Of a stretch of 57,936 nt of DNA, positions 183 through 30,548 are shown piece by piece; position 1 is the stretch's first letter, and the number at the start of each line of letters is the position of its first letter. A program made the translations under genes and the position numbers. The notes beneath the pieces were generated by a model. That model was not told the DNA's origin, made no database searches, and was given only the letters and a program-made list of their open reading frames with translations. The DNA lies in IMG/VR virus record IMGVR_UViG_3300021197_001531, positions 1 to 57,936 of that record; one strand, 5' to 3'. The stretch comes from a virus. Taxonomy: Duplodnaviria; Caudoviricetes.

Positions 183-959
183 ATGACCAGTCCTTTTGAG
201 TCTGCATGGGCACTACTCAAAAACGATGATGAGGATTACATGCACCACGCCTCTGATTACATTGAGAGAATGTTTGGTATTCCTAACCAAAGGGCCATGG
301 AATTAGCGCAAGAATTGATGCAACACCAGTTATCACGAGCAAATATCCCTCAATCAAAAATTGATTTGCATACCGGAGATGCTGGAATGACAAGTGATTT
401 TCTCAATCAAAAGTTTGCTAAGCCCTTGGCTGGTAGCCTTTACAACATGAATAGAAACATAAACGAAGTAGTGGATAATCATCTTGGCGACGAAAATCTT
501 AGCCAGCAAATCGGTCAACGAACCAGCAACGAGGCATTCTCACGGCGTGGCTTAAAGGGTAATCCCCGTGTCCCACAAATGGATGAAGAGGCCAGTTATG
601 CTAACATTTCAATTCCTCGTGAATCGCCTATCCATGGCTTAGAGCCATTTGGCGAGAACGAGCCAATGGGCGCAACCATGGGAATGCCAATGGCTGATGA
701 TGTTCTTGAGCCAATTCGTGAACGCCAACGCATGCGTGAGCAAGAGTCATTCAATCCATTTACCGCAAAACCTTCTCGTCCTCCTGCGCCCCCAATGCAA
801 GAGTCGGATGTGCCGATGAGTAACGAACCCATGTCCCGTGGCCCAATGCGCTCTCGCAAGCGAGGCGACCCTGCTCGCCAACCAAGATTCGTCCGACCGG
901 GTTTCCGTTCTACCGAAAGTATGCCCTTAACGGACAAATCCGCTGAAAGCAGATTGTAG
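183..959 (+). CDS. Hypothetical protein with N-terminal SPFESAWALLK tag; putative virion-internal protein
   Basis: ORF 174-959; ATG 183 preferred from TATA spacing; tag shared with other ORFs; low-complexity M/P/R-rich C-terminus. Confidence 0.7.
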   Translation: MTSPFESAWALLKNDDEDYMHHASDYIERMFGIPNQRAMELAQELMQHQLSRANIPQSKIDLHTGDAGMTSDFLNQKFAKPLAGSLYNMNRNINEVVDNHLGDENLSQQIGQRTSNEAFSRRGLKGNPRVPQMDEEASYANISIPRESPIHGLEPFGENEPMGATMGMPMADDVLEPIRERQRMREQESFNPFTAKPSRPPAPPMQESDVPMSNEPMSRGPMRSRKRGDPARQPRFVRPGFRSTESMPLTDKSAESRL

Positions 960-1170: not shown

Positions 1171-2006
1171 ATATCACCGTGTACGAGGTCGGCCCTCGTG
1201 ACGGTCTTCAATCTATAGAACATTTTATTCAAACGCCGATAAAACAAAATCTGATTGCCGCTTTGTACAATGCTGGTTTAGAGCATGTGGAAGAGGTGAG
1301 TTTTGCTCACCCGAAACTTGTGCCGCAAATGGCTGACGCAGAAGAAGTGTATGACAGGGGTGCCGCTTTAATCATGAACAAGCGTGGGTATGACCGTGCA
1401 GTGGCGGCTGGAGTTGACAAGTTCAACATCGTTTTTAGTCCGTGTGAAACTTTCAACATCAACAACATGGGCAAGACTCGCAGTGAAATTGTGTTGATGT
1501 ACAAGACATTCATGAAAGAAATACCCAAAGACAAGGTGCGAGTGTACATCAGCATGGCATTTGGTTCACCCCATAGCGGCACACCTCGCCTCAACACTCT
1601 CATTTCGTGCATTCGTGATGCCAAGATGTTTGGTAATACTGTGGTGTTTGCTGACACTGTAGGTGTAGCGACTCGTCGGGACATGGAATATGTGGGTGAA
1701 TTGGCGAAAAACGAAGGTGTGCGACCAGCACTCCACCTGCATCACAATGGCAACGAAGGGCGAGCCATGGAATTAGTGCGTCACGCCATCTTCCATGGCA
1801 TTCACGAGATTGATTCCAGTATTGGTGGTCTTGGTGGGTGTCCGTTTGCTACCAACAGTGGGGCAAATTTGTCCACTGAGTCATTGGTTGTTAATTTACA
1901 CGCTTGGGGTTTTGAAACTGGTGTAAATGAAAATGTATTGAAAGAAGCATCACTCATAGCGAGCAAAATAAAATTCAATGATGAGGGCCGTAAAATAGTG
2001 GCATGA
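1167..2006 (+). CDS. hmgL: Hydroxymethylglutaryl-CoA lyase-like protein (DRE-TIM metallolyase); auxiliary metabolic gene
   Basis: EVGPRDGLQ, SFAHPKLVPQMADA, ADTVG, HLH metal motif and DSSIGGLGGCPFA..SGANLSTE signature. Confidence 0.88.
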   Translation: MNITVYEVGPRDGLQSIEHFIQTPIKQNLIAALYNAGLEHVEEVSFAHPKLVPQMADAEEVYDRGAALIMNKRGYDRAVAAGVDKFNIVFSPCETFNINNMGKTRSEIVLMYKTFMKEIPKDKVRVYISMAFGSPHSGTPRLNTLISCIRDAKMFGNTVVFADTVGVATRRDMEYVGELAKNEGVRPALHLHHNGNEGRAMELVRHAIFHGIHEIDSSIGGLGGCPFATNSGANLSTESLVVNLHAWGFETGVNENVLKEASLIASKIKFNDEGRKIVA

Positions 2007-3621
2007 TTGGGCGTTGTTTTGTTGGTGTCAAATTACCCATGTGTTTCTCAGCCAGCAGTTTTACAACCTGCTCCATGTCGGGATGAATACCCTCAATGAG
2101 TGTGCCTTCGTTAGTGTCGGTCATTTTATGCGCCCGGTCAAGGGTGGTGAGGTCACCTCGCAGTGCCTCGGTGATTTGATGCGGCAACTGCAACTCGCCT
2201 TTGAGCATACGCCAAGCCATGTCCATTGGTGATGATTTGAGAATGCCTCGTGCAACCAACTGGTTGAATACCGCTTGTTCCATAATTGGTAATGTGCGGA
2301 TTCGTTGTGGTGAAATCTGTTTATTATTGTAAGTGTACATATTCGGGTAACCCATAAGGTTGTCAAACTTGCCTGCTATTTCCTTTCCTTCATCGGTATC
2401 AAGGAACTTATCTTTCACAATCGTTTCTTCGGCGGTGGCAAGTTCATCTTTCATTCTTACCGCATCCTCTTTAGCCTGCCTGTTAGCGGCCAATGTATCT
2501 GCACGCTTTCTTTTTGTTTCATCTCTCATGCTTTGTTCTGCTTGACTCTTTTTTTCTTCAACTTCCCTTTTCCTTTCGGCCTCTTCTTCCTCTTCCTTCT
2601 TTCGCCTTTGCTCAAGCATTTCGGCGTATCGCCTTTCTCTTTCTTCACGAGTGTTCTCGTTGTGTTGACGATTAGCGGCAAGTAAACTTTCTTTGGAATC
2701 AAGGTTAGGGCGCATAACATTCTTTGGACGAACCATTTGCTCGTAGTCAACATCATGGTCTTGCTCTAACACTGTGGTCAAGCCCGGTGAAGCCATTTCT
2801 TGGAGAAGTGGCTGATATTGCTGAGTTGTTTTACTTCCAACGCCACTTCTTTTACTCTCAAAGAGATTTTTTACAGCACCTCTCATTCGGTCGGAGCCAC
2901 CCTTTTCTTCGTTGAACTTTGGAAGAGCAGTAAAATCAATGTGTTGTTCAAGAGCGTTCATCAGTTGGTGGGATGGGATATTGTACATTCCGGGGAAACT
3001 TTTGGGGTCACTGTGCTCTTGGTCGTACATGTAATCGGGATTAAATCGTGTTGAGGTCCAATCATCAGCAGTGTCCCTGTATTCTGTTTTCCCCTGCATA
3101 TCTCTTATGTTTGATTTGCCTTGGGTATCAAATTTAGGAATGTCTTCAACGAAACCTGCTCGCACTTTACCGTGCTGGTTGGGTTGGAAAAGATTGGGAT
3201 TTTGCATATTTTCAATGCTCGTGTCAATGATTCGTTGGCGAGATTGAGCGTATTCGGGTGTTCGGAAAGGTGAAGTAAAATACATGTCCTTCAGCATTCG
3301 CCACGACATATCCATAGGCTCTCCCGTGGTGATTTGCGAGCCAGCCTTGGCTTTGTCGGCCATTTGCTGGCCACGCTGTTCCATGTTCTGTTGGCTTTGT
3401 TTTGTTTGCTCAGCAATTTTATTTCCAACATCTTGTGGGGCACCCGCTATGCGTTCAGCGGCGGCGTCCTTTATTTTGTCAGTAAAAGTCTGTTTTGCTG
3501 TTTCCTTTGCGACTTTTTTAGCCGCTTGTCCTGCTACAACATTCGTCACAACATTAGCGGCGGCAACAGCACCAGCGGCGGCAACAGGCGGTGCTTTGCG
3601 AATAGCGACACGCCTGCTCAT
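1975..3621 (-). CDS. Hypothetical modular protein (N-terminal RRVAIRKA plus two internal PMDMxWRMLK tags; E/K-rich coiled coil)
   Basis: 548-aa ORF; tags at 3289-3324 and 2200-2235; divergent promoter shared with the gene at 3673. Confidence 0.75.
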   Translation of the reverse strand: MSRRVAIRKAPPVAAAGAVAAANVVTNVVAGQAAKKVAKETAKQTFTDKIKDAAAERIAGAPQDVGNKIAEQTKQSQQNMEQRGQQMADKAKAGSQITTGEPMDMSWRMLKDMYFTSPFRTPEYAQSRQRIIDTSIENMQNPNLFQPNQHGKVRAGFVEDIPKFDTQGKSNIRDMQGKTEYRDTADDWTSTRFNPDYMYDQEHSDPKSFPGMYNIPSHQLMNALEQHIDFTALPKFNEEKGGSDRMRGAVKNLFESKRSGVGSKTTQQYQPLLQEMASPGLTTVLEQDHDVDYEQMVRPKNVMRPNLDSKESLLAANRQHNENTREERERRYAEMLEQRRKKEEEEEAERKREVEEKKSQAEQSMRDETKRKRADTLAANRQAKEDAVRMKDELATAEETIVKDKFLDTDEGKEIAGKFDNLMGYPNMYTYNNKQISPQRIRTLPIMEQAVFNQLVARGILKSSPMDMAWRMLKGELQLPHQITEALRGDLTTLDRAHKMTDTNEGTLIEGIHPDMEQVVKLLAEKHMGNLTPTKQRPIMPLFYGPHH

Positions 3622-3672: not shown

Positions 3673-4950
3673 ATGGCGAGGGTGCTGATAAGCAAGGCTA
3701 CTCTTGCTGATTTCGGTGTACCTCGCCAAGAAGTGGCAGTTCGCCCACCTATGCCCACCGAACAACAAATTCGTGAAGCGGTGTTGGGGGATGAAAACTT
3801 GGGGTTAATGTCACCCGAACAGTACGGTATGCGAATGCCCCTTATTGAGCGTGAGCGAGATTCGTCTGTGGAAGAAAGACAAAGAGAAAAACACAATCCG
3901 GGTGAAACAGGAAGGAAATTTTTAGAGGGTATGAGGCTTGAAGGTGCGTTAGCAAGTGGTGTCGCTATGCGTGAGTTTCCTGCCATCGGGATGCACGATA
4001 ATCACGAAGTAATGCCATTTTTGCGTGATTACTATAGTCGGCAAACTACGATACCCGAACATGACTGGCAGTATCACACTGAAGGGCCGTATTATGATGA
4101 AGAAGGGAACATCTTGCCCGGACAGGTACCCCCTGTAGATGCTGTTAAGTTAATGGGAGAAGCCGACATCAAGCATGTGGGACAGGGGAGTGGATTTGGA
4201 TTAAAACCACTCCCTTTTTCACATGTAAACGAAAGGTGGGAAATAGACGATATAGAACCCGGAAAGCAATTTCCTGCTGAAAACATAGGTTTTGTCGGCC
4301 CAACTATGGAACAAGCCATAACACGAAATGCAGCCGCTAATGTTTCACGACAAACTCCAAGGGGGTATGTTGGAGTAAGAGGATTCGGTAGGCCAAGCGA
4401 TAAGGCGTTTGCAAGAAGAACATTTGAAGGTGGAGAAGGTGGTTTTACAGCACCCATACCACCGGAACGCTTAGTAGGTGCTATGCCTGCATCAAGAGCC
4501 AATTTAGGAAAAGATTCTTCAAGAGTATTACCTGTAATGAAGCCGACAATTGTTGAACCAAAAACCGATAAGGAAAAAATAATGGAAGCAGTGAGAGATG
4601 GTATCATATCCCCATTAGATGTGCCATTACTATTGGCCCGTAAAAAATATATGAGTCACGAATTTCCTTACGACGCAGAATGGTATGAAGGTGTTATACC
4701 AACATTTTCAAATAAAATGCGGCGGGAAAGCCAACCAGCGGTAAATGCCATTAAAAATGCTTTTAAAAACGCTATACCTAAGTCGTGGGAAGAAGGGCAT
4801 TTCGGGCTGGAGAATGCAATTTTAACCGACGCTGAAAAAGCGAATTACATCCGTCAACTGGAAGAGCAACAGGAAAAACTACCCTTTTCATATGTAGATG
4901 AAGATAACACGGTACTTTATCCAAAGAAAACAGGGGTGCGTTTCACATGA
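3673..4950 (+). CDS. Hypothetical protein (N-terminal MARVLISKA tag)
   Basis: ORF track starts at 3334, but that extension overlaps the antisense gene. In-frame ATG 3673 follows a TATA box and gives the recurring VLxxK leader. Confidence 0.72.
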   Translation: MARVLISKATLADFGVPRQEVAVRPPMPTEQQIREAVLGDENLGLMSPEQYGMRMPLIERERDSSVEERQREKHNPGETGRKFLEGMRLEGALASGVAMREFPAIGMHDNHEVMPFLRDYYSRQTTIPEHDWQYHTEGPYYDEEGNILPGQVPPVDAVKLMGEADIKHVGQGSGFGLKPLPFSHVNERWEIDDIEPGKQFPAENIGFVGPTMEQAITRNAAANVSRQTPRGYVGVRGFGRPSDKAFARRTFEGGEGGFTAPIPPERLVGAMPASRANLGKDSSRVLPVMKPTIVEPKTDKEKIMEAVRDGIISPLDVPLLLARKKYMSHEFPYDAEWYEGVIPTFSNKMRRESQPAVNAIKNAFKNAIPKSWEEGHFGLENAILTDAEKANYIRQLEEQQEKLPFSYVDEDNTVLYPKKTGVRFT

Positions 4951-6518
4951 AGCCCGTGCTGGTCAAGAAGGCTTTGCCTCGGCATTGGTCAAAGGATTTT
5001 GATACCACTGAGGATTTACGCAGTGTGTTAAGACAGGCTCGTTTGATGTCTCTTGAGGATGCAAAAAACATTGAAAACATACCGCTAAGACCCGAAATAA
5101 GAGATTGGGAATTAGAACAAACCGCTGAAGGAATGAAAAGTATTGTTCCGGGTATTCAAGGTGGAAAAATCACAGACCAAGGATATGTGGATGAAGGTGG
5201 GGCGTTTACTTATCCCCCTCAATTACAATCATTTCTACCCTTGATACACCCCGAAGCAAGAATGAGCGGCGTTACTATGCCCGACATACCCGGCTCAATG
5301 GGTAAACCGGGTGGAAGACCGAGTGTTTTAGTTGGTTCCTTTGAAAAGCCGGAGTTTCACGCCACTCAAAAAGAAGGGCGTGTACAAACAGAAGGGTTCA
5401 TGCCGGGTGGTTTTGACCCTTCTCAAGCGGTTCTTCTCACAGAACCCTCTCGTGCCTTCGCAAGACAAGAAGTGCCAATGGCTATACACAATCTTGTAGG
5501 AGGAAAAATGAAGGATTATGCTCCCGGCACCTTTGGTTATAATGAACCCGCAGGAAGGGCCATGGAATCATTCAACATTTTACCACATGGTGCAGAAAGT
5601 CCATTGTCGCAGTATTCGGGGTGGGGGAAACCCCGAACTGTTGATGATGAATTTCGCCTTAGCGAACCAATGGACATCGCTTTCCAACTGCTCAAAGCGT
5701 ATGATGTTGAAGAAGTCAAAAGAAAACTTATGGACAAGGGTTCTTATGAAGACTATGTTGACTATCAAATCACTGATGCACAACCCGGTATGGACAGGAC
5801 ATTACCCCGTCCTTACGGTTTAATGAGCCACCAAGCGTTGAATGCTTTACATAACGGGTGGTTTGAAGGGGATATTCGGGACATGCTTGATGACCCCAAT
5901 TTTTCCTTTGAAAGAGATAACGAGGGAAATGCGATTTGGAGTGCTCACAATTTAGGATGGGGAAACCCCGAACACGCCGACCCCGAACATATGGGTTTTA
6001 TGATTGAAAATCAATTAGAAGGAACCCCTGTGGACTTTGAAGGAATAGGTAGAGAGAGTAATTTAAGGACATTGGAAAATGTACCCTTTGAACTCAATGA
6101 GCCACAATCGTCATCCTTTTTGGGAATGAAAATGAACCCCACATCCACTACCAGTTTTTCCACTCATTCAGCACACGGTCCAACAAACACCTTAGAGGAA
6201 GTTGAGGGAATGAAAGGGCGAGGTTTTCAAGACATTTACACAGGCGAACCAATGAACATCGCTTTCCAACTGCTCAAAGAGCGTGTAAGCCCCGAAGCCA
6301 AGCGGCACAAGTTGGAGTACGACAAGAAGTACGAGTCCAGCCCGGAACGGGTGAAGTATCGGGAGGACTTGAACCGTGAACGCCGCCGCCGTGGTATCTA
6401 TGGTAGTCATAATCACCAAGATGTAAGTCACACTGAGGGCGGCAAATTAACCCTTGAAAGCGAGCATGAAAACAGGGCACGGCACTTCAAAGACAAGGGA
6501 ACCCTTCGGGAATTGTGA
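4947..6518 (+). CDS. Three-module protein separated by EPMxIAFQLLK tags; C-terminal module basic and possibly HNH-like
   Basis: MKPVLVKKA leader; SEPMDIAFQLLK (5661-5696) and GEPMNIAFQLLK (6243-6278); last module has DVSH...ENRAR, reminiscent of small phage HNH proteins. Confidence 0.72.
   Translation: MKPVLVKKALPRHWSKDFDTTEDLRSVLRQARLMSLEDAKNIENIPLRPEIRDWELEQTAEGMKSIVPGIQGGKITDQGYVDEGGAFTYPPQLQSFLPLIHPEARMSGVTMPDIPGSMGKPGGRPSVLVGSFEKPEFHATQKEGRVQTEGFMPGGFDPSQAVLLTEPSRAFARQEVPMAIHNLVGGKMKDYAPGTFGYNEPAGRAMESFNILPHGAESPLSQYSGWGKPRTVDDEFRLSEPMDIAFQLLKAYDVEEVKRKLMDKGSYEDYVDYQITDAQPGMDRTLPRPYGLMSHQALNALHNGWFEGDIRDMLDDPNFSFERDNEGNAIWSAHNLGWGNPEHADPEHMGFMIENQLEGTPVDFEGIGRESNLRTLENVPFELNEPQSSSFLGMKMNPTSTTSFSTHSAHGPTNTLEEVEGMKGRGFQDIYTGEPMNIAFQLLKERVSPEAKRHKLEYDKKYESSPERVKYREDLNRERRRRGIYGSHNHQDVSHTEGGKLTLESEHENRARHFKDKGTLREL
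5662..6279 (+). repeat. 36-nt direct repeat pair (5662-5697 and 6244-6279), 35/36 identical
   Basis: GCGAACCAATG(G/A)ACATCGCTTTCCAACTGCTCAAAG read at both positions, 582 nt apart and in frame. Confidence 0.92.
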
Positions 6519-6700
6519 GTATTCACTTACCTCACTTTACTCAAACTTCACTTCACCTAAAATGAGGTAACTGGAATAGTCACTTTACTCATAGGTACTA
6601 CTCTTAATATAATATAATTATAGAATATAGTGAATAAATGAAGTAAACTGGGGGGTCAAAAATGGTGAGTGAAGTTTTGACTAAAGTGACGAAAGCGAAA
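6519..6700. other. Origin-like intergenic region (short repeats flanking an AT-rich core)
   Basis: TCACTTTACTCA at 6532-6543 and 6580-6591; multiple TCACT copies on the left and AGTGA copies on the right; imperfect inverted repeat 6541-6557 / 6664-6680; AT-rich core about 6604-6640. Confidence 0.5.
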
Positions 6701-7306: not shown

Positions 7307-7578
7307 GTGGTGATGATGTGGGTCGTATTTTCAAAACACCTACGGATGACTCTACTGAAGCCACGCTTCGTGCAATGCACACACAAAACACACTGGACAA
7401 TTATTACGAAAAGGGCGTTGGATGGCTACGCACTTTTCTTTTTGTTTTGGTTGCCATACTTGGTACCAGTTATTGGGAAATTTATACAGGTGAATCAGCA
7501 TGGGAAAACACAGTGGAATGGATGTGGCAAAAAGTTCAAGATGTCGCAGACTGGCTTTGGGGGCTTGTAAATGGTTGA
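7303..7578 (+). CDS. Small membrane protein (one TM plus Trp-rich amphipathic helix)
   Basis: WLRTFLFVLVAILGTSYW and WENTVEWMWQKVQDVADWLWGLV; overlaps neighbours; true start may be GTG 7318 after a GGTGA RBS. Confidence 0.68.
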   Translation: MSGDDVGRIFKTPTDDSTEATLRAMHTQNTLDNYYEKGVGWLRTFLFVLVAILGTSYWEIYTGESAWENTVEWMWQKVQDVADWLWGLVNG

Positions 7579-8287
7579 ACCTGCTGGTACGGCGATGGTC
7601 GGAGCGATGGTGTGGGGAAAAGCCATATTCAACGCATGGAGGCCACGCAAGGTCGGTATTTACGGTGCTGGACTAACAGGTAAAACCACACTTGACCGTT
7701 ATATGACAACACCGGGAGAAATGGAAGAAATTCCCGAAGAAGAACGGACAACACATTTCAAAATGTTAGGTCGTTACAACTTACCCAAACCAACCCGTAA
7801 GCGAGTGTCTTGGAAGGGTGAAAAACGAGTTGTATTTTCTGCTGATGTAGGCGGTCAAGAGCGATTTTGGAACTTGTGGATTGATGACATGGTGAATCGT
7901 AATGTGGAATGTGTTGTTTACATGTTTGATGACCGTGCTATCAAAGGTGGGGAAGAAGCACTTCAGCAAATTGCCGGATTCAAATATCTCGTTGATGCAG
8001 TAGTAAACAGGCAATATCGTTATCGCAACATTCGGAGCAGATGGCGGGGAAAAAAATACACCCCTAAACTCATTATGTTGGTCGCAAATAAAGCAGACCG
8101 CTTTTTTGATGATACAGCGGTTATGCTTTGGCAACAAGAGCGTATCGGTGAGCACAAAATTTTTGATGCGTTTCGTGATGATTTAGTTCGCTTACAAAAA
8201 GCAGGGGTGCCTACACGCCGCTCCTTTATGGCTACACGAATTGGTTGGAATGTTGATACAACCATGATTTCTCTTTTGACGACTTAG
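7571..8287 (+). CDS. Ras-superfamily small GTPase, Arf-like
   Basis: G1 GAGLTGKTT (7664-7690), G3 DVGGQ followed by ERFWNLW (7844 onward), VVYMFD strand, G4 NKAD (8087-8098); hydrophobic N-terminal helix. Confidence 0.85.
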   Translation: MVEPAGTAMVGAMVWGKAIFNAWRPRKVGIYGAGLTGKTTLDRYMTTPGEMEEIPEEERTTHFKMLGRYNLPKPTRKRVSWKGEKRVVFSADVGGQERFWNLWIDDMVNRNVECVVYMFDDRAIKGGEEALQQIAGFKYLVDAVVNRQYRYRNIRSRWRGKKYTPKLIMLVANKADRFFDDTAVMLWQQERIGEHKIFDAFRDDLVRLQKAGVPTRRSFMATRIGWNVDTTMISLLTT

Positions 8288-10552: not shown

Positions 10553-11230
10553 ATGGCGGGGGAGCGAGTGATAAAGCGTTCTTGTGCTTTTTGCGTCTGT
10601 GAAGACCGAGATTCATTTGAAGAACAGATGCTTCAAGGCTTCATATCTGCTCGTCAATTGGATAAAGACATGGGTTGGCGAGCCAATACAGCAGACCGAC
10701 ATTACCGGAATCACATGGGAGATTACCACATGGCGGCAAATACAGAATGTGCTTTGTGCACTACGCCGATGCGTGGCGAATACGAGCGTGTCTTTTACGA
10801 AGACGGTAGTACAAGTGAGCAAATCGCTCAAGACTTGGGTATATCAGTGGATAATGTGTTCCATCACATGAAGCATCACTTCCAACCACTTGTGCAAAAG
10901 TCTGCGGCCATTGAGGTTGCACTAACCGCTGGAAATGAAATTTCTTTACTACGCTCAAATGCTGAAAAATTAAATTACAAACTCAGCGAGTTGCTTAACG
11001 AGGGCACCGTACACGAAGATGGGTTTGTGCGAGATGCCGTGGCTTTGCACAAGGAAGTTCGTGAAACCGTCAAAGACTTGTTGCGCTTTCAAGACCAATG
11101 GGGACCAAAAGGTGACGGCCAACAAGTCAATCAAACATTCAACATTTTGCAAGTGGAGTTGGGTAAAGAAAGCCCCGACACATGGATGCGAATTAAAAAA
11201 CAGTTACAAGAAAACATGGGGGCTGAATGA
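10553..11230 (+). CDS. Tandem CxxC-HTH-HxxxH protein; candidate terminase small subunit
   Basis: Two units (CAFC...HYRNH and CALC...HMKHH) followed by a helical region and QVNQTFNIL strand; heads the operon containing terL. Confidence 0.5.
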   Translation: MAGERVIKRSCAFCVCEDRDSFEEQMLQGFISARQLDKDMGWRANTADRHYRNHMGDYHMAANTECALCTTPMRGEYERVFYEDGSTSEQIAQDLGISVDNVFHHMKHHFQPLVQKSAAIEVALTAGNEISLLRSNAEKLNYKLSELLNEGTVHEDGFVRDAVALHKEVRETVKDLLRFQDQWGPKGDGQQVNQTFNILQVELGKESPDTWMRIKKQLQENMGAE

Positions 11231-12501
11231 TGTCAATGGGTCGTGGTTCGGACACTCGCATGTATGCGCCTCGTAGTGAGTCGGATAAGATGTACTCTTC
11301 AGCCAATGAGGATGAAGATAAATACAGTCCTGCTGACCCGGACTATAATGAGAAAAAGCGTGAAGAAAAAAAGCGCAGGGTTGAAGAAAAGAAGGCTCAG
11401 CGTGACAAAATTAAACATATTAAAATTCGTGCTACACAGGGTTTGAGTGGGGAAGAATCTTCTAATCCGCTTGATGATGGCAACAAGCGTGATGATGAGC
11501 GTGAAATGGGACTACAGGGTGGCCCTGCTGGTAGTCGGGGTACGCTTCTTGACCTCGCTACTGGGGCAAAAAGCGGAACAGGCTCAGCCATGAGTCCCGG
11601 CCTTCCAATCGCTATGAGCGAACCGATGGAGGATGCTTGGAGTACATTGCTCAAGCGAGAAACACCACGCACCATCGCAGGACGACGCAAGCGTGAGGCT
11701 CGCCAGCAATTCCGTCCCTCTACGGGCCAGTTCAAGACACCCCCCGGAGGAATGGCTGGTGGTGCCGGTGCTACGATGCGCCGCTTCAAAGCACAGATGC
11801 GTGGTATCAAAAGTGGAAAAAAGACTGGATTGATGAAACCGCATCTGTCGGTTGAGATGAGCCACCGTGGTATTCAAACTAAACAACCGTTGTCTAAAGA
11901 CCCGCAAAAATACACGGCCTACAAAGGACAATCCGAGGCTCGTAAAATTTTAGGTGGAGCGAGGACCACTTTCTCACCCCACGCAAGGTATGGTGTACGC
12001 TCTAACAGGGCAGGACCAACTGGTGCTGGGCGACTGGGTGGGTTAATGCCCGGACAACGAGGCCAGTTGGCCCGTCCTGCTCTTCGTCGTATGCGTCAAC
12101 CTCGTATGCCTCGTATGCCTCGTATGAGCGCACCTATGCCTCCTACCCCACCTATGATGCCACAGATGCAATCCAGCGTTCCCGCTATGCCTTCCCCATC
12201 CTCAAGCATCATGATGAGTGAAGAGCGATACCGAAGTGAAATTCTCAAAGCACGAAACAGCCTTCATCGTATTGAATTGCTCAACCTTATGCGACGGCTT
12301 ATCCAAGCCAAAGAGCGAGAGGCAAAGATTAAGAAAAATTTGACAGCGACAGATGCCGCTGATTTACCCGGTCACCCTGCTGGTGTCAAACCGACCGATG
12401 ACGAAGACCCCCAAGGGCCGACTGAAAATCTTGAAACTGACCCCAAAACATTTGGGTTGGACCCTGTGGGTATAATTAACAGCAGACGGGGTGGAATGTG
12501 A
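11227..12501 (+). CDS. Basic low-complexity protein with SEPMEDAWSTLLK tag; putative internal head protein
   Basis: Tag at 11617-11655 and a second SEILKA site; R/G/M/P-rich; CCTCGTATG x3 at 12100-12126. Confidence 0.72.
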   Translation: MMSMGRGSDTRMYAPRSESDKMYSSANEDEDKYSPADPDYNEKKREEKKRRVEEKKAQRDKIKHIKIRATQGLSGEESSNPLDDGNKRDDEREMGLQGGPAGSRGTLLDLATGAKSGTGSAMSPGLPIAMSEPMEDAWSTLLKRETPRTIAGRRKREARQQFRPSTGQFKTPPGGMAGGAGATMRRFKAQMRGIKSGKKTGLMKPHLSVEMSHRGIQTKQPLSKDPQKYTAYKGQSEARKILGGARTTFSPHARYGVRSNRAGPTGAGRLGGLMPGQRGQLARPALRRMRQPRMPRMPRMSAPMPPTPPMMPQMQSSVPAMPSPSSSIMMSEERYRSEILKARNSLHRIELLNLMRRLIQAKEREAKIKKNLTATDAADLPGHPAGVKPTDDEDPQGPTENLETDPKTFGLDPVGIINSRRGGM

Positions 12502-14462
12502 TGATTCGTGTGGGTCGGCCAATTAAGAAGGCATGGAGCCTTGTTGGACACGGCCCAGCGGGAGCACAAATTTTTCGCAACCCACCACCACAGGCTTTCC
12601 GCCCCGAAGGAGAGGATGACCTTCCTGCACACGCTCACGATGGTGTAGGAAATCATTTACCGGGCGAGTGGGCACTTGGGGAACATGGTCAAAAATCCTA
12701 CAAAACACAATTTGGGGATTTTCACCACCCAATTGATGCAGTAGCACGCAAACTTGGTGATTTCCTTCGTGCAAGGGGATTCAACATTCCAGCATCCGAG
12801 GTTATTAACAACGCAATAAACGAGTTTAATGACACACATACTCATGGTGACGCACATGCGCTGGCTGATTTTGACTCCCCCGAATGGCGTAAAATTAGGG
12901 CTTCGGATATGCCCGAAGGGGATGTAACACGAGAGCGAAACACTATGCCTACTCGTACTCAAGGTGGTACCAAAATCACCATGCTTACCAATAAAAATCA
13001 GATGGACACCCCAATAGGTAAATTCGTTGAGGGTGGCTACATTCCATTTCACCGTAATATAATTCACCAATTAGAGGATATGGGTATTCCAACACAAGAA
13101 ATACGACAAGGGCTTAAGATTCTTGACTACCCTTGGCTACAACCCTACTTTCTTACACCTAAAAAATTCCTCGTTTCAAATAAGGGGCAACATGGTGCTG
13201 ATGTTGACGAAGCGATGATGAGTCGTGGCCCGGAAGGGTATTTTGGGGAAACCGAGGGTGTACGCACTTGGGAAGTCATGCACCACCTTCCCGATGCTTT
13301 CTTTTATCCTGCTTTAAACAAGCAAGGTACACAAAAATCGGGAAAAGCCGGTTCTTGGGAACATAAAAATGGGTTATATCAAGCGGCATCAAAAATGATT
13401 CAAAGTGCCTTACAACAAGGTATGGAACACATTCCCAATGTGGATGTCACTGTCAATACTGGTTCGTTTGGTGCCCCTAACATGATTCAACGACCACTTC
13501 ACGAAATCCTTCAAACACCCGATTTGCGAAATAAACTGATAGAGGACATGGCTCATGTACCTGCTATGATGTTTCTGTTTGGTCGTAGCGGGCAAGGCAA
13601 TTTCAAAAAGTTGTACGACCACATGATGGAAAAGTACGGTGCGTCCGATGACATGCTTTCAGCAGGTGAACAGGCCAAGTACCTTTCAGCAGGTAACAAG
13701 GGTGGTAAAGGAATGCACGAGTCGGCTAAGCGTATGTTTGCTCTTGCTCGTGCATCGGGTGAAGGAAGTGAAGAGGGCCGTAGCCGATTTGGTGAGCATC
13801 CTATTTCTGCTGACGAGTTGCAAGCAATGGGTATGCACCACAGTGATAATCTCATGAACCAAGTGGATAGATTTCGTGGTGTTCTTGAAGCATTGGCCGA
13901 CCACCAAGCCAGCGCACAAGGCCACGAAGTCAAGCGTGGACTTGGTGATATTCCTACCACAGCCCGTCCGGGGATGTCCATTGGTGGTTATCCCGAACTC
14001 AACGCTGAAACGGGGGAATACTCCATGCCTCCTCTTGACCCACACATGGATGCCTACTTTCACGAAGTCCATGACTTCGCTCCAACGGAGTCCTTTGACC
14101 CGTCCCTTACACAGTCGCCCGACCCGCAGGGAATTTCCTCTCCTGTTCAGCCCGCTTTATCTCCAGCGGTTCCGGCTCCGGTTCGGGCGACACCTTCTTC
14201 CTATCCTCATACACCACGAGAGCAGTATCAACAACTGCGACCACAAATCGGACAACTTGAACCCATGCAATTCCGACAATTGCTTGAGCAATCCGGTCGT
14301 CGCAGGCCCATGCCGATGAGCGATGCACCTCTTTCTCCCATGGATGCGGCGGCTCAACGCCTTATGGCAGACCCTCAACAGAATCTTCTCAGTGAATACT
14401 ACAAATCTATGGACCGCACCATGGATGATGTCATGCGAATTGTAAAAGGTGGGCGACGATGA
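12498..14462 (+). CDS. Hypothetical protein (His/Gly/Pro-rich), putative virion-associated
   Basis: 654-aa ORF translationally coupled on both sides; RPIKKA leader. Confidence 0.75.
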   Translation: MMIRVGRPIKKAWSLVGHGPAGAQIFRNPPPQAFRPEGEDDLPAHAHDGVGNHLPGEWALGEHGQKSYKTQFGDFHHPIDAVARKLGDFLRARGFNIPASEVINNAINEFNDTHTHGDAHALADFDSPEWRKIRASDMPEGDVTRERNTMPTRTQGGTKITMLTNKNQMDTPIGKFVEGGYIPFHRNIIHQLEDMGIPTQEIRQGLKILDYPWLQPYFLTPKKFLVSNKGQHGADVDEAMMSRGPEGYFGETEGVRTWEVMHHLPDAFFYPALNKQGTQKSGKAGSWEHKNGLYQAASKMIQSALQQGMEHIPNVDVTVNTGSFGAPNMIQRPLHEILQTPDLRNKLIEDMAHVPAMMFLFGRSGQGNFKKLYDHMMEKYGASDDMLSAGEQAKYLSAGNKGGKGMHESAKRMFALARASGEGSEEGRSRFGEHPISADELQAMGMHHSDNLMNQVDRFRGVLEALADHQASAQGHEVKRGLGDIPTTARPGMSIGGYPELNAETGEYSMPPLDPHMDAYFHEVHDFAPTESFDPSLTQSPDPQGISSPVQPALSPAVPAPVRATPSSYPHTPREQYQQLRPQIGQLEPMQFRQLLEQSGRRRPMPMSDAPLSPMDAAAQRLMADPQQNLLSEYYKSMDRTMDDVMRIVKGGRR

Positions 14463-15550
14463 GTAAGAAAGTTTTGATTCGTAAGCAAGCAGATGGCATC
14501 GTCAATTATCGCGATATTTCTCATGGACGACCTTCTGCTGGGGCTTTAGCGAGAAGGTTGTTTGCTGACCCCACTGCCGGTAAATGGCAAAAAATCAACG
14601 CCGGTTTGAATCTTGCAGGGAAGGGTGCGGCGGCTGTTTTAGCGGCCAATGATGCGGCCCAACGACTCCATGGAGGTAACATTACTGCGCCACTTACTAT
14701 TGGTCAAACTTATGCCTCGCTGGACCCTTCAAGCATGAGTGGCCAAACTGCTCAAGAGCAACAACAAATGGAGATTGAAAAAAGGAAAAATGCACAAAGA
14801 GCGAAGAAGATAAACGCTCTCACGGACTTGAGAATCAATGTTGGGGACACTATCACAAATCCACAGGGTGTTCAAAATCAACTTCAAACACACGCACTAT
14901 CCGTTCAGCAACCCCCTGCTGGACTACCAGTACCAGCAAGTGGGCCTCGTGCTGGTGCTACTCCCCCCGGAATGGGTGGTACTAATTTTGCTCATCCGTA
15001 CCAAGCGCAGTGGGAGGCTACGGGGGCAACAGGAAGGGCACCCCCTACCTTTACAGGAGCGAGAGGGCCAACAGGTCCACCTCCTGTGACTCAGCCACCG
15101 GCGGCAACGGCAACTCAGCCAACTCAGCCAGCGGCACCACTTGACCCCAGTTTGGTAGAGGCGACAGCAAATACAGGCGTTCCAACTGCCGCACCTGCCG
15201 CACCTGCCGTACCTCCCCAAGCAACAACACAGAATCCCGGTGGCTATGGGGTGGACGGGGTAACACACCAAGAGCAAGGCACACTTTCTTTCCCAACCTA
15301 CGCTCCGAATACTGGACCAAATCCTCCACCCCTTCCCCCCAATCCTGCGCCGGTATATGTATCTCCTCAAGGAAATACACATAAATTAGGCACTCCCGAA
15401 AGCCGGGAATGGGCAGATAGAAACCAATGGAATAGGTCTTTTGCTACATATGTGCTTGACCAGTTTGGCGACATGCTTCACAAAGCCGACCCCCATGTAG
15501 CAGGTTTGCTCGCCTTCCGAGTGTACATGGACAAAGTGTTGAAGGAGTGA
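14459..15550 (+). CDS. Hypothetical Pro/Ala/Thr-rich protein (KKVLIRKQ leader)
   Basis: 363-aa ORF directly upstream of terL. Confidence 0.72.
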   Translation: MSKKVLIRKQADGIVNYRDISHGRPSAGALARRLFADPTAGKWQKINAGLNLAGKGAAAVLAANDAAQRLHGGNITAPLTIGQTYASLDPSSMSGQTAQEQQQMEIEKRKNAQRAKKINALTDLRINVGDTITNPQGVQNQLQTHALSVQQPPAGLPVPASGPRAGATPPGMGGTNFAHPYQAQWEATGATGRAPPTFTGARGPTGPPPVTQPPAATATQPTQPAAPLDPSLVEATANTGVPTAAPAAPAVPPQATTQNPGGYGVDGVTHQEQGTLSFPTYAPNTGPNPPPLPPNPAPVYVSPQGNTHKLGTPESREWADRNQWNRSFATYVLDQFGDMLHKADPHVAGLLAFRVYMDKVLKE

Positions 15551-21011: not shown

Positions 21012-21362
21012 ATGGACTTATTGAAGATGCACCCGATGGCTCGTAAAATGGAACAAGCGAACAAGGCATTTCTTGATGCTCTTGAAAGTGGGGATGGCCG
21101 AATGGCCAAGCAACACCTCACTGAAGTTCAAAAACTCAGTGACTTTCTCGCTGATGATTTGCAAGGAGAAATTACCAAGTCGGATGTTGTAACACCACAA
21201 GGTCCACGGGACATTTTCGCTGGTGGTGTACCAGTTTTGAAAATGGATTCTCAACAAGCCGCTCAACCTGCTTTGAAGGGAGAACGGATTGGTTTTATGT
21301 CATCCACTGCTCACAAGCGACAGTACAAGCGAAGTGCCGGTAGTTACGGTCGTCGTCTTTGA
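21012..21362 (+). CDS. Hypothetical head-module protein
   Basis: 116-aa ORF; upstream TTTTAAAG at 20969-20976; MDLLK and EITKS sites. Confidence 0.7.
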   Translation: MDLLKMHPMARKMEQANKAFLDALESGDGRMAKQHLTEVQKLSDFLADDLQGEITKSDVVTPQGPRDIFAGGVPVLKMDSQQAAQPALKGERIGFMSSTAHKRQYKRSAGSYGRRL

Positions 21363-21371
21363 GGTGATTTA

Positions 21372-21713
21372 ATGAGTGATTCCACTAACGCCGAGCAATT
21401 GATTGGTGTCCTCATCAACAAAATGGAAACTATGGATTCCGACCTTTCGCTTATCAAGGCTGAAAATGTGGCTCTAAGAAATATCATCAATAATCCTCAA
21501 CAACTTCTTCGTAAAATGGGACTTGTGAGTGTTGCTACACCCTTGACCGATGATTTGCAAGTTGACCCATTTCGGGGAGACATGTCGCTTGAAGGGGGTT
21601 CTTTGTTGAAAAGTACACCCCAAGTTGGGACAATGAGTAACGAGGACATTCACGCTATGTCATGGGAACAAATCCATGAAATGGCCGTAGGAGCAAAGGG
21701 GGCAGTACAATGA
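21372..21713 (+). CDS. Coiled-coil protein with a scaffold-like C-terminal motif
   Basis: GAGGTGA RBS; C-terminal SNEDIHAMSWEQIHEMA resembles the end of the protease/scaffold. Confidence 0.72.
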   Translation: MSDSTNAEQLIGVLINKMETMDSDLSLIKAENVALRNIINNPQQLLRKMGLVSVATPLTDDLQVDPFRGDMSLEGGSLLKSTPQVGTMSNEDIHAMSWEQIHEMAVGAKGAVQ

Positions 21714-29447: not shown

Positions 29448-30548
29448 ATGGCAAGAGATTACATTAGAAACATTACTGACATGGAACGATACTACTACGG
29501 TGCGGGTAACTCTATGGGTTACTCCTACTCCGGTAGCGAATTGCTCAAGGCTGACGCACCAATGCTGTCCACGACGGCTGGTACTTACCAAGCCATCTAT
29601 GGGCGCAAAGTTTGGAGCCAGTTGAACCAAGAGTTCAACGCCTTCTCTATCCTACCAAAGCGACCTTGGGAGCGAAGTGGATGGCGAGTCATCACTGAGC
29701 GTCCTTCGTTCAGCGTTGGTGGCGGTGTTGCAGAAAACGCAACCCTCCCCGACACCACCAAGCCCACCTTCCAGCACATTGCCGCCAAGCCAAAGACTGT
29801 GGTTCACACCTTTGACATGAGCGAAACCGCAATGTTCTTGTCCGACAAGGACGATGGATTGGGTGACATCCGTGCAATCCTCAAAGAAGAAATGGGTAAG
29901 CACCACGCAGAACATGTGAACAAGATGCTCACAACCGACAAAGGCACTGTTGCAGGGAACGACTTTGAATCCCTTGACCGTGTGACTGTTGGAGCCTCCG
30001 CTTCTTCCAACGAAGACATGTACTCCATTGACCGCAGTGCTAACTCGTGGTCATTGTCCGAGCACAATGAAAACAGTGGTACCGACCGTAACTTGTCCCT
30101 TGACCAACTGGACGACCTGTTCCAAAAGATTTGGACTCGTGGTGGCAACCCCAAGGTCATCTTGACAGGCTACGACACGCTCATGCGCCTTCAGCAACTT
30201 CTCCAGTCGCAACAGCGATTCATGGAAGAGAAGCGTGTTACGCCTACCTACAACGGTGTGAAAGGTGTCCCCGGTATTGAGGCTGGATTCATTGTGGCTA
30301 CCTACAACGGTGTCCCTATCATCCCTTCCAAGGATGTGCAAACCGACACCTTGAGTCGTATGTATTTCCTTGATACAGATTACCTGTACTTCAGCACTGC
30401 AATTCCAACCCAATACTTTGAGAGCGGTATTGAAACTGGTGACCCGTTTGCCATCAACCGCCTCGGACAAGAAGGAATGTACCGTACCATGGGAGAACTA
30501 TGGACGACTTTCTTCGGTGGCCACGGCTCAGTCCGTGACCTCAAGTGA
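29448..30548 (+). CDS. Major capsid protein (HK97 fold)
   Basis: Follows the protease; 366 aa; GGVAENATLP, KTVVHTFDMSE and YNGVPIIPS patterns; biased codon usage; GAGGTGA RBS. Confidence 0.9.
   Translation: MARDYIRNITDMERYYYGAGNSMGYSYSGSELLKADAPMLSTTAGTYQAIYGRKVWSQLNQEFNAFSILPKRPWERSGWRVITERPSFSVGGGVAENATLPDTTKPTFQHIAAKPKTVVHTFDMSETAMFLSDKDDGLGDIRAILKEEMGKHHAEHVNKMLTTDKGTVAGNDFESLDRVTVGASASSNEDMYSIDRSANSWSLSEHNENSGTDRNLSLDQLDDLFQKIWTRGGNPKVILTGYDTLMRLQQLLQSQQRFMEEKRVTPTYNGVKGVPGIEAGFIVATYNGVPIIPSKDVQTDTLSRMYFLDTDYLYFSTAIPTQYFESGIETGDPFAINRLGQEGMYRTMGELWTTFFGGHGSVRDLK

Follow-up and report, generated by a model that had tools for sequence, protein, structure and literature searches.

A conserved peptide tag whose coding DNA probably serves as an in-frame joint for module exchange in a magrovirus-like archaeal tailed virus

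A peptide tag of 12 residues divides unrelated protein modules in the genes of a magrovirus-like virus and its relatives, and its coding DNA very probably acts as an in-frame joint at which such modules are gained, lost and shuffled. The window, i.e. the whole stretch of 57,936 bases analysed here, contains a gene (ORF 4947-6518) with the order M1-tag-M2-tag-M3. In this magrovirus-like tailed virus of archaea the gene is hyper-variable, and the allele of the window stands exactly one unit event, a gain or a loss, apart from a cassette-less M1-tag-M3 allele. Passages of PMC3157838 recall the modular theory of Botstein and the old debate between special linker sequences and random exchange that is then filtered. 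Modular evolution of viruses is mostly told gene by gene; here the modules are parts of genes and are combined with one dedicated conserved linker.

The modular gene and its repeat

The gene and its parts are the following.

4947-6518, plus strand: modular gene of 523 aa, made of leader, M1, tag 1, M2, tag 2 and M3
4947-4973, plus strand: N-terminal leader MKPVLVKKA, a conserved start and second, left-hand exchange boundary
4947-5660, plus strand: module M1, 238 aa
5661-5696, plus strand: codons of tag 1, SEPMDIAFQLLK, with the DNA repeat copy at 5662-5697 (tag profile 26.2 bits)
5697-6242, plus strand: cassette module M2, 182 aa
6243-6278, plus strand: codons of tag 2, GEPMNIAFQLLK, with the DNA repeat copy at 6244-6279 (tag profile 27.3 bits)
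6279-6515, plus strand: module M3, 79 aa, conserved C-terminal anchor (phrog_6437)

The two tags are encoded by a single 36-nt direct repeat, the copies of which are identical at 35 of 36 positions (97%) and start 582 nt, or 194 codons, apart in frame. A search allowing up to three mismatches finds exactly these two copies across the window, and none of 100 dinucleotide shuffles contains any repeat match. The preliminary description, made from the letters of the window, had pointed to near-identity down to the wobble positions and to this in-frame spacing, and both are borne out by measurement. All ten residues common to the two tags are written with the same codon, for which a hand estimate gives a chance of ~7e-4 under tag-specific codon use and ~1e-4 under background codon use. 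With the register shifted by one base the pair matches at 34/36, the third highest value among 99 within-ORF tag pairs; between loci, 40 of 26,096 tag pairs reach 35/36. The contrast drawn earlier with the neighbouring ORF 1975-3621 is equally real, its two tags (GEPMDMSWRMLK and SSPMDMAWRMLK) matching at just 27 of 42 aligned bases and differing at several synonymous sites.

No Pfam family covers the whole protein. M1 has no match in Pfam or PHROG, and in its family of 10 members six different module families come next across the tag, M3 following directly in three cases. M2 has 8 matches in total among 1.84 billion representative proteins, with no Pfam or PHROG family and no usable ESM Atlas match; its AF2 model (pLDDT 59.6) gives no fold match, the best structural match having a Z of 5.5 over 40 helical residues. 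M3 corresponds to phrog_6437 (E 3.2e-15 over aa 448-517), and only that part of the protein matches; the same part alone is matched in tblastn by the Synechococcus phages S-CBS2 and S-CRES1/2 (50-53%). Its family counts 101 members in 99 loci, is terminal in 97 and is preceded by 42 different module families. The M3 AF2 model (pLDDT 67.7) has three strands and a helix at the end, and residues D68, H71 and N85 are invariant, a motif which may resemble that of HNH nucleases (beta-beta-alpha-metal). Neither Pfam nor the PDB sequences (E up to 1) gave a match to M3, and a Foldseek search with its model (E up to 0.001) was equally empty.

The tag family

The tag has the consensus [S/G]-E-P-M-[D/E/N]-I-A-[F/W/M]-[Q/R]-L-L-K (12 residues). 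It is predicted to be helical, and it is so in the AF2 model of M3. Besides tags 1 and 2, the window holds four tags.

183-221, plus strand: N-terminal tag of ORF 174-959, MTSPFESAWALLK (14.7 bits)
3289-3324, minus strand: first tag of ORF 1975-3621, GEPMDMSWRMLK (21.5 bits)
2200-2235, minus strand: second tag of ORF 1975-3621, SSPMDMAWRMLK (22.9 bits)
11617-11655, plus strand: variant tag with one extra residue in ORF 11227-12501, SEPMEDAWSTLLK (10.1 bits)

All tags of the window are confined to four genes in its first 12.5 kb, upstream of those for packaging and the head. In a complete relative of 107,632 bp (G015), seven of eight tags lie at 67-74 kb, beside the packaging/head block, and none at 75-107 kb. 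A conserved block runs in the window from tag 2 to the tag of ORF 11227-12501, where homology to five relatives (L010, L012, L059, L033 and L007) stops at 11643-11661.

A survey of 146 sources (145 related loci and the window) with the tag profile retrieved 497 tags of at least 9 bits in 333 frames and 141 of the sources; reversed sequences gave no match at 8 bits or more. Tags occupy diverse positions, with 113 N-terminal, 373 internal and 11 C-terminal, and a frame may hold up to five of them. They separate 207 module families, as defined by clustering at 70% mutual coverage. Most modules belong to no known family in Pfam or PHROG, and matches to enzymes are few: a phosphohydrolase (phrog_990, 4.1e-35) and a module matching both DUF3293 (3.6e-6, over Pfam's cut-off) and S-AdoMet lyase (8.8e-6, under it). 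A Pfam scan of 54 module representatives yielded DUF5872 and DUF6321 and, more weakly, DUF3293 / S-AdoMet lyase, HD_4 and GNAT. At the codon level, tags within one ORF resemble each other more than others do, with a same-codon rate of 0.624 (99 pairs) versus 0.419 for non-orthologous tags of different loci and 0.385 for residues identical by chance.

The left-hand boundary is marked by the leader. A leader-like motif stands ahead of the first tag in 47 of the 333 tag-bearing frames, and leader DNA of the window is homologous to L010 (4914-4965) and L012 (4915-4978) despite differing M1 modules. Contigs part from the window at 4964/4965, within the leader.

Gain, loss and replacement of modules among relatives

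Relatives do not all share the three-module gene. Two contigs (L071 and L072) have the organization M1-tag-M3, which is the form shorter by exactly 582 nt that the preliminary description had predicted from recombination between the repeat copies. They match window positions 4947-5697 and 6244-6518 at 88-91%, with flanks at 90-91%, and the two homology blocks overlap on the subject by exactly 36 nt, corresponding to a single tag. Three other contigs (L001, L070 and L073) have the same flanks, with a 1337-nt three-module block in the cassette slot. M2 is absent from L071/L072 and replaced in L001; homology to these three contigs stops at 5697 and, as for L010 and L012, restarts at 6244-6246. 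Elsewhere M2 is found in L002, L013, L074, L075 and P0001-P0006, in varied contexts: behind a different N-module (L075), inside a 1187-aa open frame (L074), at the N-terminus of another protein (L002), or as a stand-alone tag-M2-tag protein of 204 aa, the last residue of which is the K of the tag (P0004).

The same pattern extends beyond this gene. Indels and replacements were surveyed between collinear blocks that are at least 85% identical. Of these 298 events, 66 start and end at a tag (no more than 9 nt from it), 133 have a single end there and 99 have none; for a random position the chance of falling so close is 2.4%. At the protein level, 673 internal HSP ends were counted, and 42% of them are at most 10 aa away from a tag, versus 14% expected. 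Indel breakpoints do coincide with tags, and the tag-bounded module differences among relatives strongly support the earlier proposal that tag DNA is a recombination joint. Even contigs that are nearly identical differ by cleanly gained, lost or replaced units. The pair L131/L140 differs by one tag-bounded unit between flanks that are 99.9% and 99.8% identical, and the other recent pairs are L120/L126 (flanks 99.7% and 99.3%) and L006/L092 (98.6% and 99.9%). Eight exchanged units (gap plus overlap, summed by hand) are each a multiple of 3. The lone tag of L092 combines parts of both L006 tags, and L120 has a tag-only mini-ORF (MNPFNQAWALLK followed by a stop) that is a hybrid of two L126 tags; such tag-only and hybrid-tag products are the expected leftovers of a homology-driven process. 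The gene is present in 18 runs from 7 seawater studies. Independent assemblies contain contigs whose match to the window breaks off precisely at positions 5661 and 6244, as well as one variant in which tag 2 and M3 are separated by ~275 additional nt.

The sole direct skip joint in public Logan contigs, which are themselves assembled, runs from 5696 to 6242. It was rejected as the 582-nt deletion: it occurs in one X1 contig, has 22 nt on its shorter side and removes 545 nt, which is not a multiple of 3.

Mechanistically, the 36 nt that encode a tag would provide 24-36 nt of near-identity at all module borders and in the same frame, because the tag is conserved as a protein. Homologous recombination or template switching could then take place between any two tags, whether these belong to a single gene, to different genes or to genomes that infect the same cell. 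As a result, units of 'module plus one tag' would be added, deleted or replaced with the frame intact. No recombinase was identified within the window. The joint may simply follow from the conservation of the peptide. Orthologous final tags have a same-codon rate of 0.559 versus 0.497 for the adjacent M3 codons, and this slight excess gives no sign that selection maintains identical DNA to enable recombination.

Age of the M2 cassette

The preliminary description had also read the near-identity of tags 1 and 2 as a mark of recent acquisition of M2. Both tags have the Ala codon GCT, present in 4 of 93 PM[DEN]IAFQLLK tags, and this rare choice points to a recent common origin of the two copies. 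The single tag of L071 and L072 has GCC. Recent acquisition is suggested by these codons, but gene conversion between old tags, or loss of the cassette in relatives, fits equally well and has a substantial, if minority, chance of being the explanation. Tags within an ORF are homogenized in general, as their same-codon rate indicates, and other near-perfect pairs exist (36/36 in L012 and 35/36 in L067). The GC3 of M2 (0.39) is close to that of M1 (0.374), and the flanks have relatives at least as close as the nearest ones of M2 (L075, 83% for DNA; P0001, 89% for protein). The rare GCT common to both tags speaks for the insertion. Entry of M2 into a single-tag ancestor with GCC, of the L071/L072 type, would explain it simply if the codon change came first; conversion would explain it equally.

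Alternative origins of the tag-bounded pattern

It is unlikely that selection alone accounts for the pattern, with illegitimate recombination occurring anywhere, only joins at module borders surviving and the identity of tag DNA playing no causal part. The 99 events without any end at a tag would be expected under such a scheme, as would orthologous tags that barely exceed their neighbouring codons at synonymous sites. However, the junctions inspected are in exact register and have 24-42 nt in common, and single tags combine sequence from both flanking tags. Selection for function hardly explains an ORF that has a tag and no module, nor clean unit differences that already separate contigs with 98.6-99.9% identical flanks. 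We infer that DNA homology drives the joints, beyond filtering by selection.

Chimeric contigs, produced by an assembler switching strains at the common 36-nt tag, are a very improbable source of these architectures. The concern is a real one, in that every comparison sequence is a metagenomic contig, repeats are sites where chimeric joins arise, and the tags are points at which contigs assembled from public runs with short k stop or fork, leaving loose ends at 5661 and 6244. Yet the architectures recur under different contig names, the cassette-less form in L071 and L072 and the three-module block in L001, L070 and L073, and contigs from other runs together span both junctions of the window (X13, 5490-6085; X16, 5416-6263; X1, 6146-6293, the last with zero differences). 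A 36-nt repeat is also shorter than ordinary reads and than the larger k-mers of current assemblers.

Still less credible is a nucleic-acid signal, in which the repeat would be an RNA structure, a protein-binding site or a packaging site and would match at wobble positions for that reason. Tag codons do deviate from background (AGC 72% versus 15%, CTC 53% versus 11%), but common descent of the tag DNA accounts for this skew, and tags vary freely at synonymous sites between loci. Moreover, the 36-nt tag folds no better than its shuffles (z -0.45); in context, tag 1 has a z of 0.17 and tag 2 a z of -2.04, the latter by flank-specific pairs, and no Rfam family occurs within the window. Finally, an internal tandem duplication, with M1 and M2 as diverged copies and the tags as remnants of the duplicated unit, is rejected, since apart from a 15-nt repeat (5624-5638 and 5959-5973) encoding GWG in both modules, M1 and M2 have a best BLASTP E of 0.14 over 11 residues and each is found without the other in relatives.

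Virus and genomic context

The window looks like part of a magrovirus genome. Magroviruses, tailed viruses of marine Poseidoniales archaea (order Magrovirales), are abundant and uncultured, and their variable genes are uncharacterized. Two head genes of the window are the following.

28046-29422, plus strand: S78 prohead protease with a fused scaffold-like tail (PF04586, 1.2e-10)
29448-30548, plus strand: major capsid protein, MCP (PF17236, 1.6e-12)

Magroviruses are recognized by a structural module with an HK97-type capsid protein nearest to that of haloarchaeal tailed viruses (Druskaviridae) (PMC10768690 and passages of PMC5434244), and the window has such a protein. Its MCP has just 11 matches among 50,697 phage records, the closest being the Haloarcula viruses HVTV-1, HCTV-5 and HCTV-1 (34-36% identity, 99% coverage), and two of the matches listed are viruses of methanogenic archaea. 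The gene order TerL-portal-large ORF-protease-MCP is similar to that of HVTV-1. An HMG-CoA lyase auxiliary gene, known from aoguangvirids and magroviruses (PMC10768690 and part of PMC10160649), is present as ORF 1167-2006 (PF00682 HMGL-like, E 1.6e-20). For groups A and B, part of PMC5434244 describes an ATP-dependent DNA ligase inside the structural module; in the window, ORF 22319-28006, in the portal-protease interval, has a weak match to PF01068 (E 9e-5, 22.7 bits), under Pfam's 26.2-bit cut-off. Magroviruses also have a near-complete replication module of archaeal type; its genes for PolB, MCM, PCNA and primase are absent from the window, which represents ~54% of a genome.

The backbone is kept while modules change: of 23 related virus records, 22 have an MCP at 80-98% identity, even where the orthologous modular gene holds different modules. 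The nearest isolate, HVTV-1, gave no tag in a profile search of the whole record, and its 40-90 kb region gave a top score of 3.1 bits, in a search run with no positive control. As for the literature, a word search of three magrovirus papers returned none of 'recombination', 'mosaic' and 'motif', and a search combining magrovirus with shuffling or mosaicism returned unrelated plant-virus papers only.

Related systems

Joints at conserved motifs are known from other systems, and the tags have the same two features: a coding motif flanks the variable segments, and breakpoints of natural variants lie inside the motif. In the T-even tail-fibre adhesins gp37/gp38, recombination occurs between conserved motifs (Tetart et al. 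1996, 1998, as cited in passages of Trojet et al. 2011, PMC3157838). In both cases, variable segments are flanked by conserved peptide-coding motifs. However, the T-even motifs, as portrayed in those passages, belong to the structure of a single receptor-binding domain, in which versions of the same loop are exchanged, whereas the universal magrovirus tag divides unrelated whole modules and also heads separate genes, with a varying number of modules and in viruses of an archaeal host.

A second parallel is found in the CDI and Rhs systems of bacteria, with their VENN-encoding sequence and orphan cdiA-CT/cdiI modules (parts of Poole et al. 2011, PMC3150448). There too, a short conserved peptide motif stands at the border of a variable payload, and according to the same parts orphan modules are proposed to be loaded onto the main gene through homologous recombination in the conserved VENN DNA. 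The free-standing protein P0004 (tag-M2-tag) and the ORF that holds only a tag are reminiscent of CDI orphans. In contrast, CDI/Rhs genes as presented there have one border each, only the C-terminal toxin is swapped and the genes are located on a bacterial chromosome, whereas the viral modules are accompanied by no immunity gene and are separated by up to five tags per frame.

At the scale of whole genes, PeSLs are short conserved sequences at module borders, and close relatives gain, lose and replace modules through the homology that they supply (2010, passages of PMC2839356). PeSLs, as these passages have it, are intergenic regulatory DNA that shuffles whole genes, whereas tags are coding DNA that shuffles protein parts in frame. 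Phages and conjugative elements also have polyvalent proteins, multi-domain mosaics whose genes neighbour those of the virion; these proteins are proposed to travel with the DNA, and some are processed by a protease (Iyer et al. 2017, parts of PMC5512222). Neither 'linker' nor 'shuffl' appears in this text (PMC5512222), so that no conserved inter-domain tag is described there. None of the polyvalent-protein domains (e.g. MPTase peptidase and DdrB-like ParB) was found by the Pfam scan of the 54 module representatives.

Possible role of the tag in the protein

The function of the tag at the protein level can be approached by analogy. The role we favour, though at somewhat less than even odds, is that of a portable signal for capsid loading and/or prohead-protease processing of proteins packed in the virion. 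Counted in favour of this role are the confinement of tags near packaging and head genes (the four genes of the window; 67-74 kb in G015), their varied positions, the helical character of the tag and the few enzyme-like modules. Set against it are the many modules that match no known family, the empty fold searches with M2 and M3, and the searches of HVTV-1, which gave no tag. The capsid targeting sequence of T4 internal proteins is a short amphipathic signal found on unrelated proteins, the genes of which lie near head genes; it is exclusively N-terminal and is cut off by the prohead protease after loading. The tag is proposed to work like it, with no sequence similarity between the two. As a member of the T4-type family itself the tag was rejected, since 113 of 497 tags are N-terminal and 373 internal.

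It is tempting to go further, on more doubtful ground, and to view the tag as a universal, position-independent load-and-cut capsid signal, with tag-bearing genes forming a plug-and-play arsenal of packaged effectors delivered with the DNA. The modules might then be called 'cargo'. Payloads bracketed by an identical 36 nt would undergo in-frame cassette exchange across the population, with homology in place of an integrase. If true, this would be a protein-level counterpart of the integron, in which payloads are tried in any order and number with loading kept. A capsid-loading tag would mark the packaged proteins of magroviruses, and as a short peptide that can be moved between proteins it would serve to load foreign ones into HK97-type capsids.

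As a mere lead on prohead-protease cleavage, for which the proposed cut would follow the Lys, the end of the tag, [LIM]LK, is seen again close to the N-terminus in the capsid protein (residues 32-34), the protease (13-15), ORF 21012 (3-5) and ORF 22319 (12-14). In seven ORFs of the head block it is observed 11 times, with ~3.5 expected (summed by hand).

A near-identical tag pair in ORF 4947-6518

ORF 4947-6518 (523 aa) is built of a leader and three modules (M1, M2 and M3) separated by two copies of a conserved 12-residue tag, SEPMDIAFQLLK and GEPMNIAFQLLK, each encoded in frame by one copy of a 36-nt direct repeat:

5662-5697, tag 1, between M1 and M2
6244-6279, tag 2, between M2 and M3

The copies, found by a repeat search of the window, are 35/36 identical and spaced 582 nt apart. 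No third copy occurs in the window at up to three mismatches, and 100 shuffled windows gave no match. All ten residues shared by the two tags use the same codon, with a chance of ~7e-4 under tag-specific codon use and ~1e-4 under background use (calculated by hand from codon frequencies). In contrast, the two tags of ORF 1975-3621 agree at just 27 of 42 bases. The preliminary description had reported both the near-identical and the divergent pair, correctly in each case. Several unrelated modules end in F-Q-D-I-x-[T/K]-G before the tag (GFQDIYTGEPM..., at 6207-6242 and in many loci); thus, some tag subtypes reach ~8 residues farther upstream.

Modules are gained, lost and moved at tags

The same description predicted a product shorter by 582 nt, and this product exists. 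In related loci L071 and L072, blastn blocks matching window positions 4947-5697 and 6244-6518 (88-91%) share exactly 36 nt on the subject. These genes therefore consist of M1, a single 36-nt tag and M3. In locus L001, the matches to 4901-5697 (88%) and 6246-6694 (91%) are separated by 1337 nt encoding three other modules. The edges of blastn homology to relatives are very clean for this ORF.

The cassette, M2 (5691-6277), also turns up in other settings: in L002 as the N-terminal part of another protein (80% identity), in L075 behind a different first module (83%) and in L074 well inside an open frame of 1187 aa (78%). A search of 1.84 billion representative proteins gave only eight matches to it; one of these (204 aa) has a tag at each end with M2 in between, and stops at the Lys of the second tag. 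When all frames were cut at tags and clustered, 207 module families were obtained. M3, with 101 members at 99 loci, is the last module in 97 and stands behind 42 different families; M1 (10 members) has right-hand neighbours of six kinds, and M2 (eight members) occurs in at least four left and at least three right contexts. M3 (6279-6515) is highly basic, and its closest relatives in cultured phages are small proteins of the Synechococcus siphoviruses S-CBS2 and S-CRES1/2. At L087:1600-4383, M1 and the homologue of window ORF 3673-4950 (the upstream gene) form a single in-frame fusion, an open frame of 928 aa, so that adjacent genes of the cluster can join into longer polyproteins.

Internal ends of protein HSPs (673 in all) fall no more than 10 residues from a tag in 42% of cases, versus 14% for random positions. 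At the DNA level, an event was defined as two collinear blocks, each with at least 85% identity, with an indel or replacement between them. De-duplication by query breakpoint left 298 events, which are not independent of each other: 66 have both ends within 9 nt of a tag, 133 one end and 99 neither, while a random position qualifies in 2.4% of cases. In many events the shorter sequence has 19-42 nt common to both flanking blocks, corresponding to the shared tag. Eight units (gap plus overlap, summed by hand) measure 300, 357, 411, 486, 489, 906, 1371 and, in the window, 582 nt, all multiples of three.

In eighteen public sequencing runs, from seven studies, half or more of the sampled words of the gene are present. 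Contigs of four runs (short-k contigs, not reads) were placed on the region. They span both window junctions, at 5490-6085 (run X13), 5416-6263 (X16) and 6146-6293 (X1, zero differences), and some part from the window precisely at positions 5661 and 6244. In run X16, one contig (record 22) follows 5416-6263 with seven differences, continues with ~275 other nt and returns to 6244-6304; its extra sequence lies between tag 2 and M3, and the contig thus represents a four-module variant of the window allele. A single cassette-skipping joint in the run contigs is too weak to use.

DNA homology at the joint

Three pairs of loci that are almost identical outside the exchanged unit capture recent differences. 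In L131 (flanks 99.9% and 99.8% identical to L140), DNA-identical tags surround a polymorphic module; L140 carries a single copy. L092 (flanks 98.6% and 99.9% identical to L006) has one tag, which combines the 5′ part of the left L006 tag with the 3′ part of the right one. L126 (flanks 99.7% and 99.3% identical to L120) carries a gene starting with a tag, followed by a 12-codon ORF made of the tag only; L120 is without that gene and retains a tag-only ORF of hybrid sequence, drawn from both L126 tags. The tag-only ORFs (MNPFNQAWALLK-stop and MKSFDQAWALLK-stop) are located at:

L120:2380-2420
L126:317-360
L126:617-660

Such ORFs resemble footprints left by tag-by-tag recombination, or landing pads for it; a tag without a module is not expected to be kept by selection for protein function. 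Codon sharing is more frequent between tags within a single ORF (0.624, 99 pairs) than between non-orthologous tags of different loci (0.419) or at residues that match by chance in unrelated flanks (0.385). Taken as a joint for gaining, losing and shuffling modules, as first proposed, tag DNA is well supported by these sequence comparisons, relatives differing by modules with edges at tags. Orthologous final tags have a same-codon share of 0.559, just slightly above the 0.497 of the next 40 codons of M3, which counts against a dedicated DNA function. A folding test detected no RNA structure in the tag, and no Rfam family was found in the window. Most likely, the joint is a by-product of strong peptide conservation and not a separately selected DNA element.

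Age of the cassette

In 93 tags of the type PM[DEN]IAFQLLK, the Ala codon is GCC in 76, GCA in 13 and GCT in four. Both window tags have GCT, and the tags inspected in L071, L072, L001 and L012 all have GCC. Given this rare codon, the two window tags are most closely related to each other, a pattern compatible with recent insertion into a gene that had one tag. Conversion between old tags explains the shared GCT equally well. GC3 is 0.39 in M2, 0.374 in M1 and much higher in M3 (0.62), and the nearest relatives of M2 are about as distant as those of the flanks. Neither composition nor distance marks M2 as new. A recent acquisition of the cassette, as first proposed, is only suggested by the tags, and the event may have run in either direction. 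M1 and M2 were also considered as paralogues; they are not paralogous.

The tag family and its conserved surroundings

A strict peptide pattern recovers five window tags and, from 68 related viral loci totalling 711,634 bases, another 160; reversed translations give no match. A 16-position profile built from these tags (threshold at least 9 bits) finds 270 tags in 190 frames and nothing at 8 bits or more in reversed sequences. With 77 metagenome loci added, the count reaches 497 tags in 333 frames from 141 of 146 sources, with at most five per frame; 373 are internal, 113 N-terminal directly after Met and 11 within 10 residues of the stop. Six profile tags occur in the window, all within four genes left of 12.5 kb, and the profile search found none in its structural genes. 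In a complete relative of 107,632 bases, seven of eight tags lie at 67-74 kb, adjoining the terminase-to-capsid block, and one at 11 kb; none occurs at 75-107 kb.

A second N-terminal signature, M-[K/R]-x-V-x-[V/I]-[K/R]-K-A, starts 47 of the 333 tag-bearing frames. Its DNA is kept even where the next module differs, and contigs part just behind it (4964/4965). Examples (MKPVLVKKA, MSRRVAIRKA, MARVLISKA and MSKKVLIRK) are found at:

4947-4973
start of ORF 1975-3621 (minus strand)
start of ORF 3673-4950
start of ORF 14459-15550

Of 23 related virus records, 22 encode a capsid protein with 80-98% identity. The records of L010, L012 and L059 have capsid proteins 96-98% identical and quite different module sets at the same position. 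Synteny with all close relatives is collinear from tag 2 (6244) to ~11650-11655, the tag of ORF 11227-12501; the conserved block therefore runs from tag to tag. Past its tag, the C-terminal part of ORF 11227-12501 is variable; L010 has ~470 nt extra there and a second tag in the ORF.

Possible role of the tag

The tag is short, conserved and position-independent, and is borne by otherwise unrelated modules encoded beside head-assembly genes. It is helical, with moderate confidence, in a model of M3. Most modules match nothing in Pfam or PHROG searches. A few match enzymes, namely a metal-dependent phosphohydrolase (phrog_990, 4.1e-35; HD_4, 5.6e-6), DUF3293 (3.6e-6) with S-AdoMet lyase (8.8e-6, below the Pfam cut-off), and part of tail-associated lysin families. 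It is tempting to propose, by analogy, that the tag acts as a capsid-loading and/or protease-processing signal; this reading is preferred, if tentatively, and a cargo role is inferred for the modules. The tag would work like the T4 targeting sequence, but would not belong to that family, given that the majority of tags are internal.

The closing tripeptide of the tag, [LIM]LK, is seen again close to the N-terminal ends of the capsid protein, the protease, ORF 21012 and a 1895-aa ORF:

29541-29549, capsid protein, aa 32-34
28082-28090, protease, aa 13-15
28541-28549, protease, aa 166-168
21018-21026, ORF 21012, aa 3-5
22352-22360, 1895-aa ORF, aa 12-14

In seven head-block ORFs, 11 occurrences are observed and ~3.5 expected (summed by hand). 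[LIM]LK is a possible prohead-protease cleavage site. The protease-scaffold has the C-terminal end ...MANMGWDEVHALAQR (29350-29419), and a similar end, ...MSWEQIHEMA (21630-21710), is found in the small ORF 21372-21713. The protease tail motif PST.D..NMSWDEVH.LA is kept in relatives, is distinct from the tag and probably represents a capsid-binding tail.

The virus and related exchange systems

The window, a 57,936-base virus record of ~54% estimated completeness, encodes a T4-type large terminase, a portal, an S78 prohead protease with a long C-terminal tail, a SU10-family capsid protein, a tape-measure-like protein and an HMG-CoA-lyase-like protein; the 1895-aa ORF, between portal and protease, has a weak match to ATP-dependent ligase. 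The capsid protein matches 11 of 50,697 phage records, best Haloarcula tailed viruses (34-36% identity over 99% of the length); two of the matches listed are viruses of methanogenic archaea. Published magroviruses are described with a halovirus-like structural module (PMC5434244, PMC10768690), a ligase embedded in it (PMC5434244) and an HMG-CoA lyase (PMC10768690, PMC10160649). With its capsid protein and HMG-CoA-lyase-like gene fitting these, the window is read as magrovirus-like. By word search, 'recombination', 'mosaic' and 'motif' are absent from the text of three magrovirus papers, whose supplements may list gene families. ORF 40866-57608 (5580 aa), downstream of the tape-measure-like gene, has a counterpart in the complete relative that is 57-63% conserved. 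ORF 7571-8287 (238 aa), 78% identical in the same relative and without Pfam or PHROG match, looks like a small GTPase from its P-loop-like GLTGKTT and DVGGQ motifs.

Conserved coding motifs are known as sites of exchange in T-even adhesins (PMC3157838) and are proposed as such for VENN-encoding DNA and orphan toxin modules (PMC3150448). Intergenic PeSL cassettes are described as shuffling genes in T4-type phages (PMC2839356), and polyvalent proteins as mosaic and encoded near virion genes, the text searched naming no conserved linker (PMC5512222). Unlike in these four systems, many unrelated modules here bear one universal tag, be it N-terminal, internal or C-terminal, the number of modules varies, and the lineage is that of an archaeal virus.
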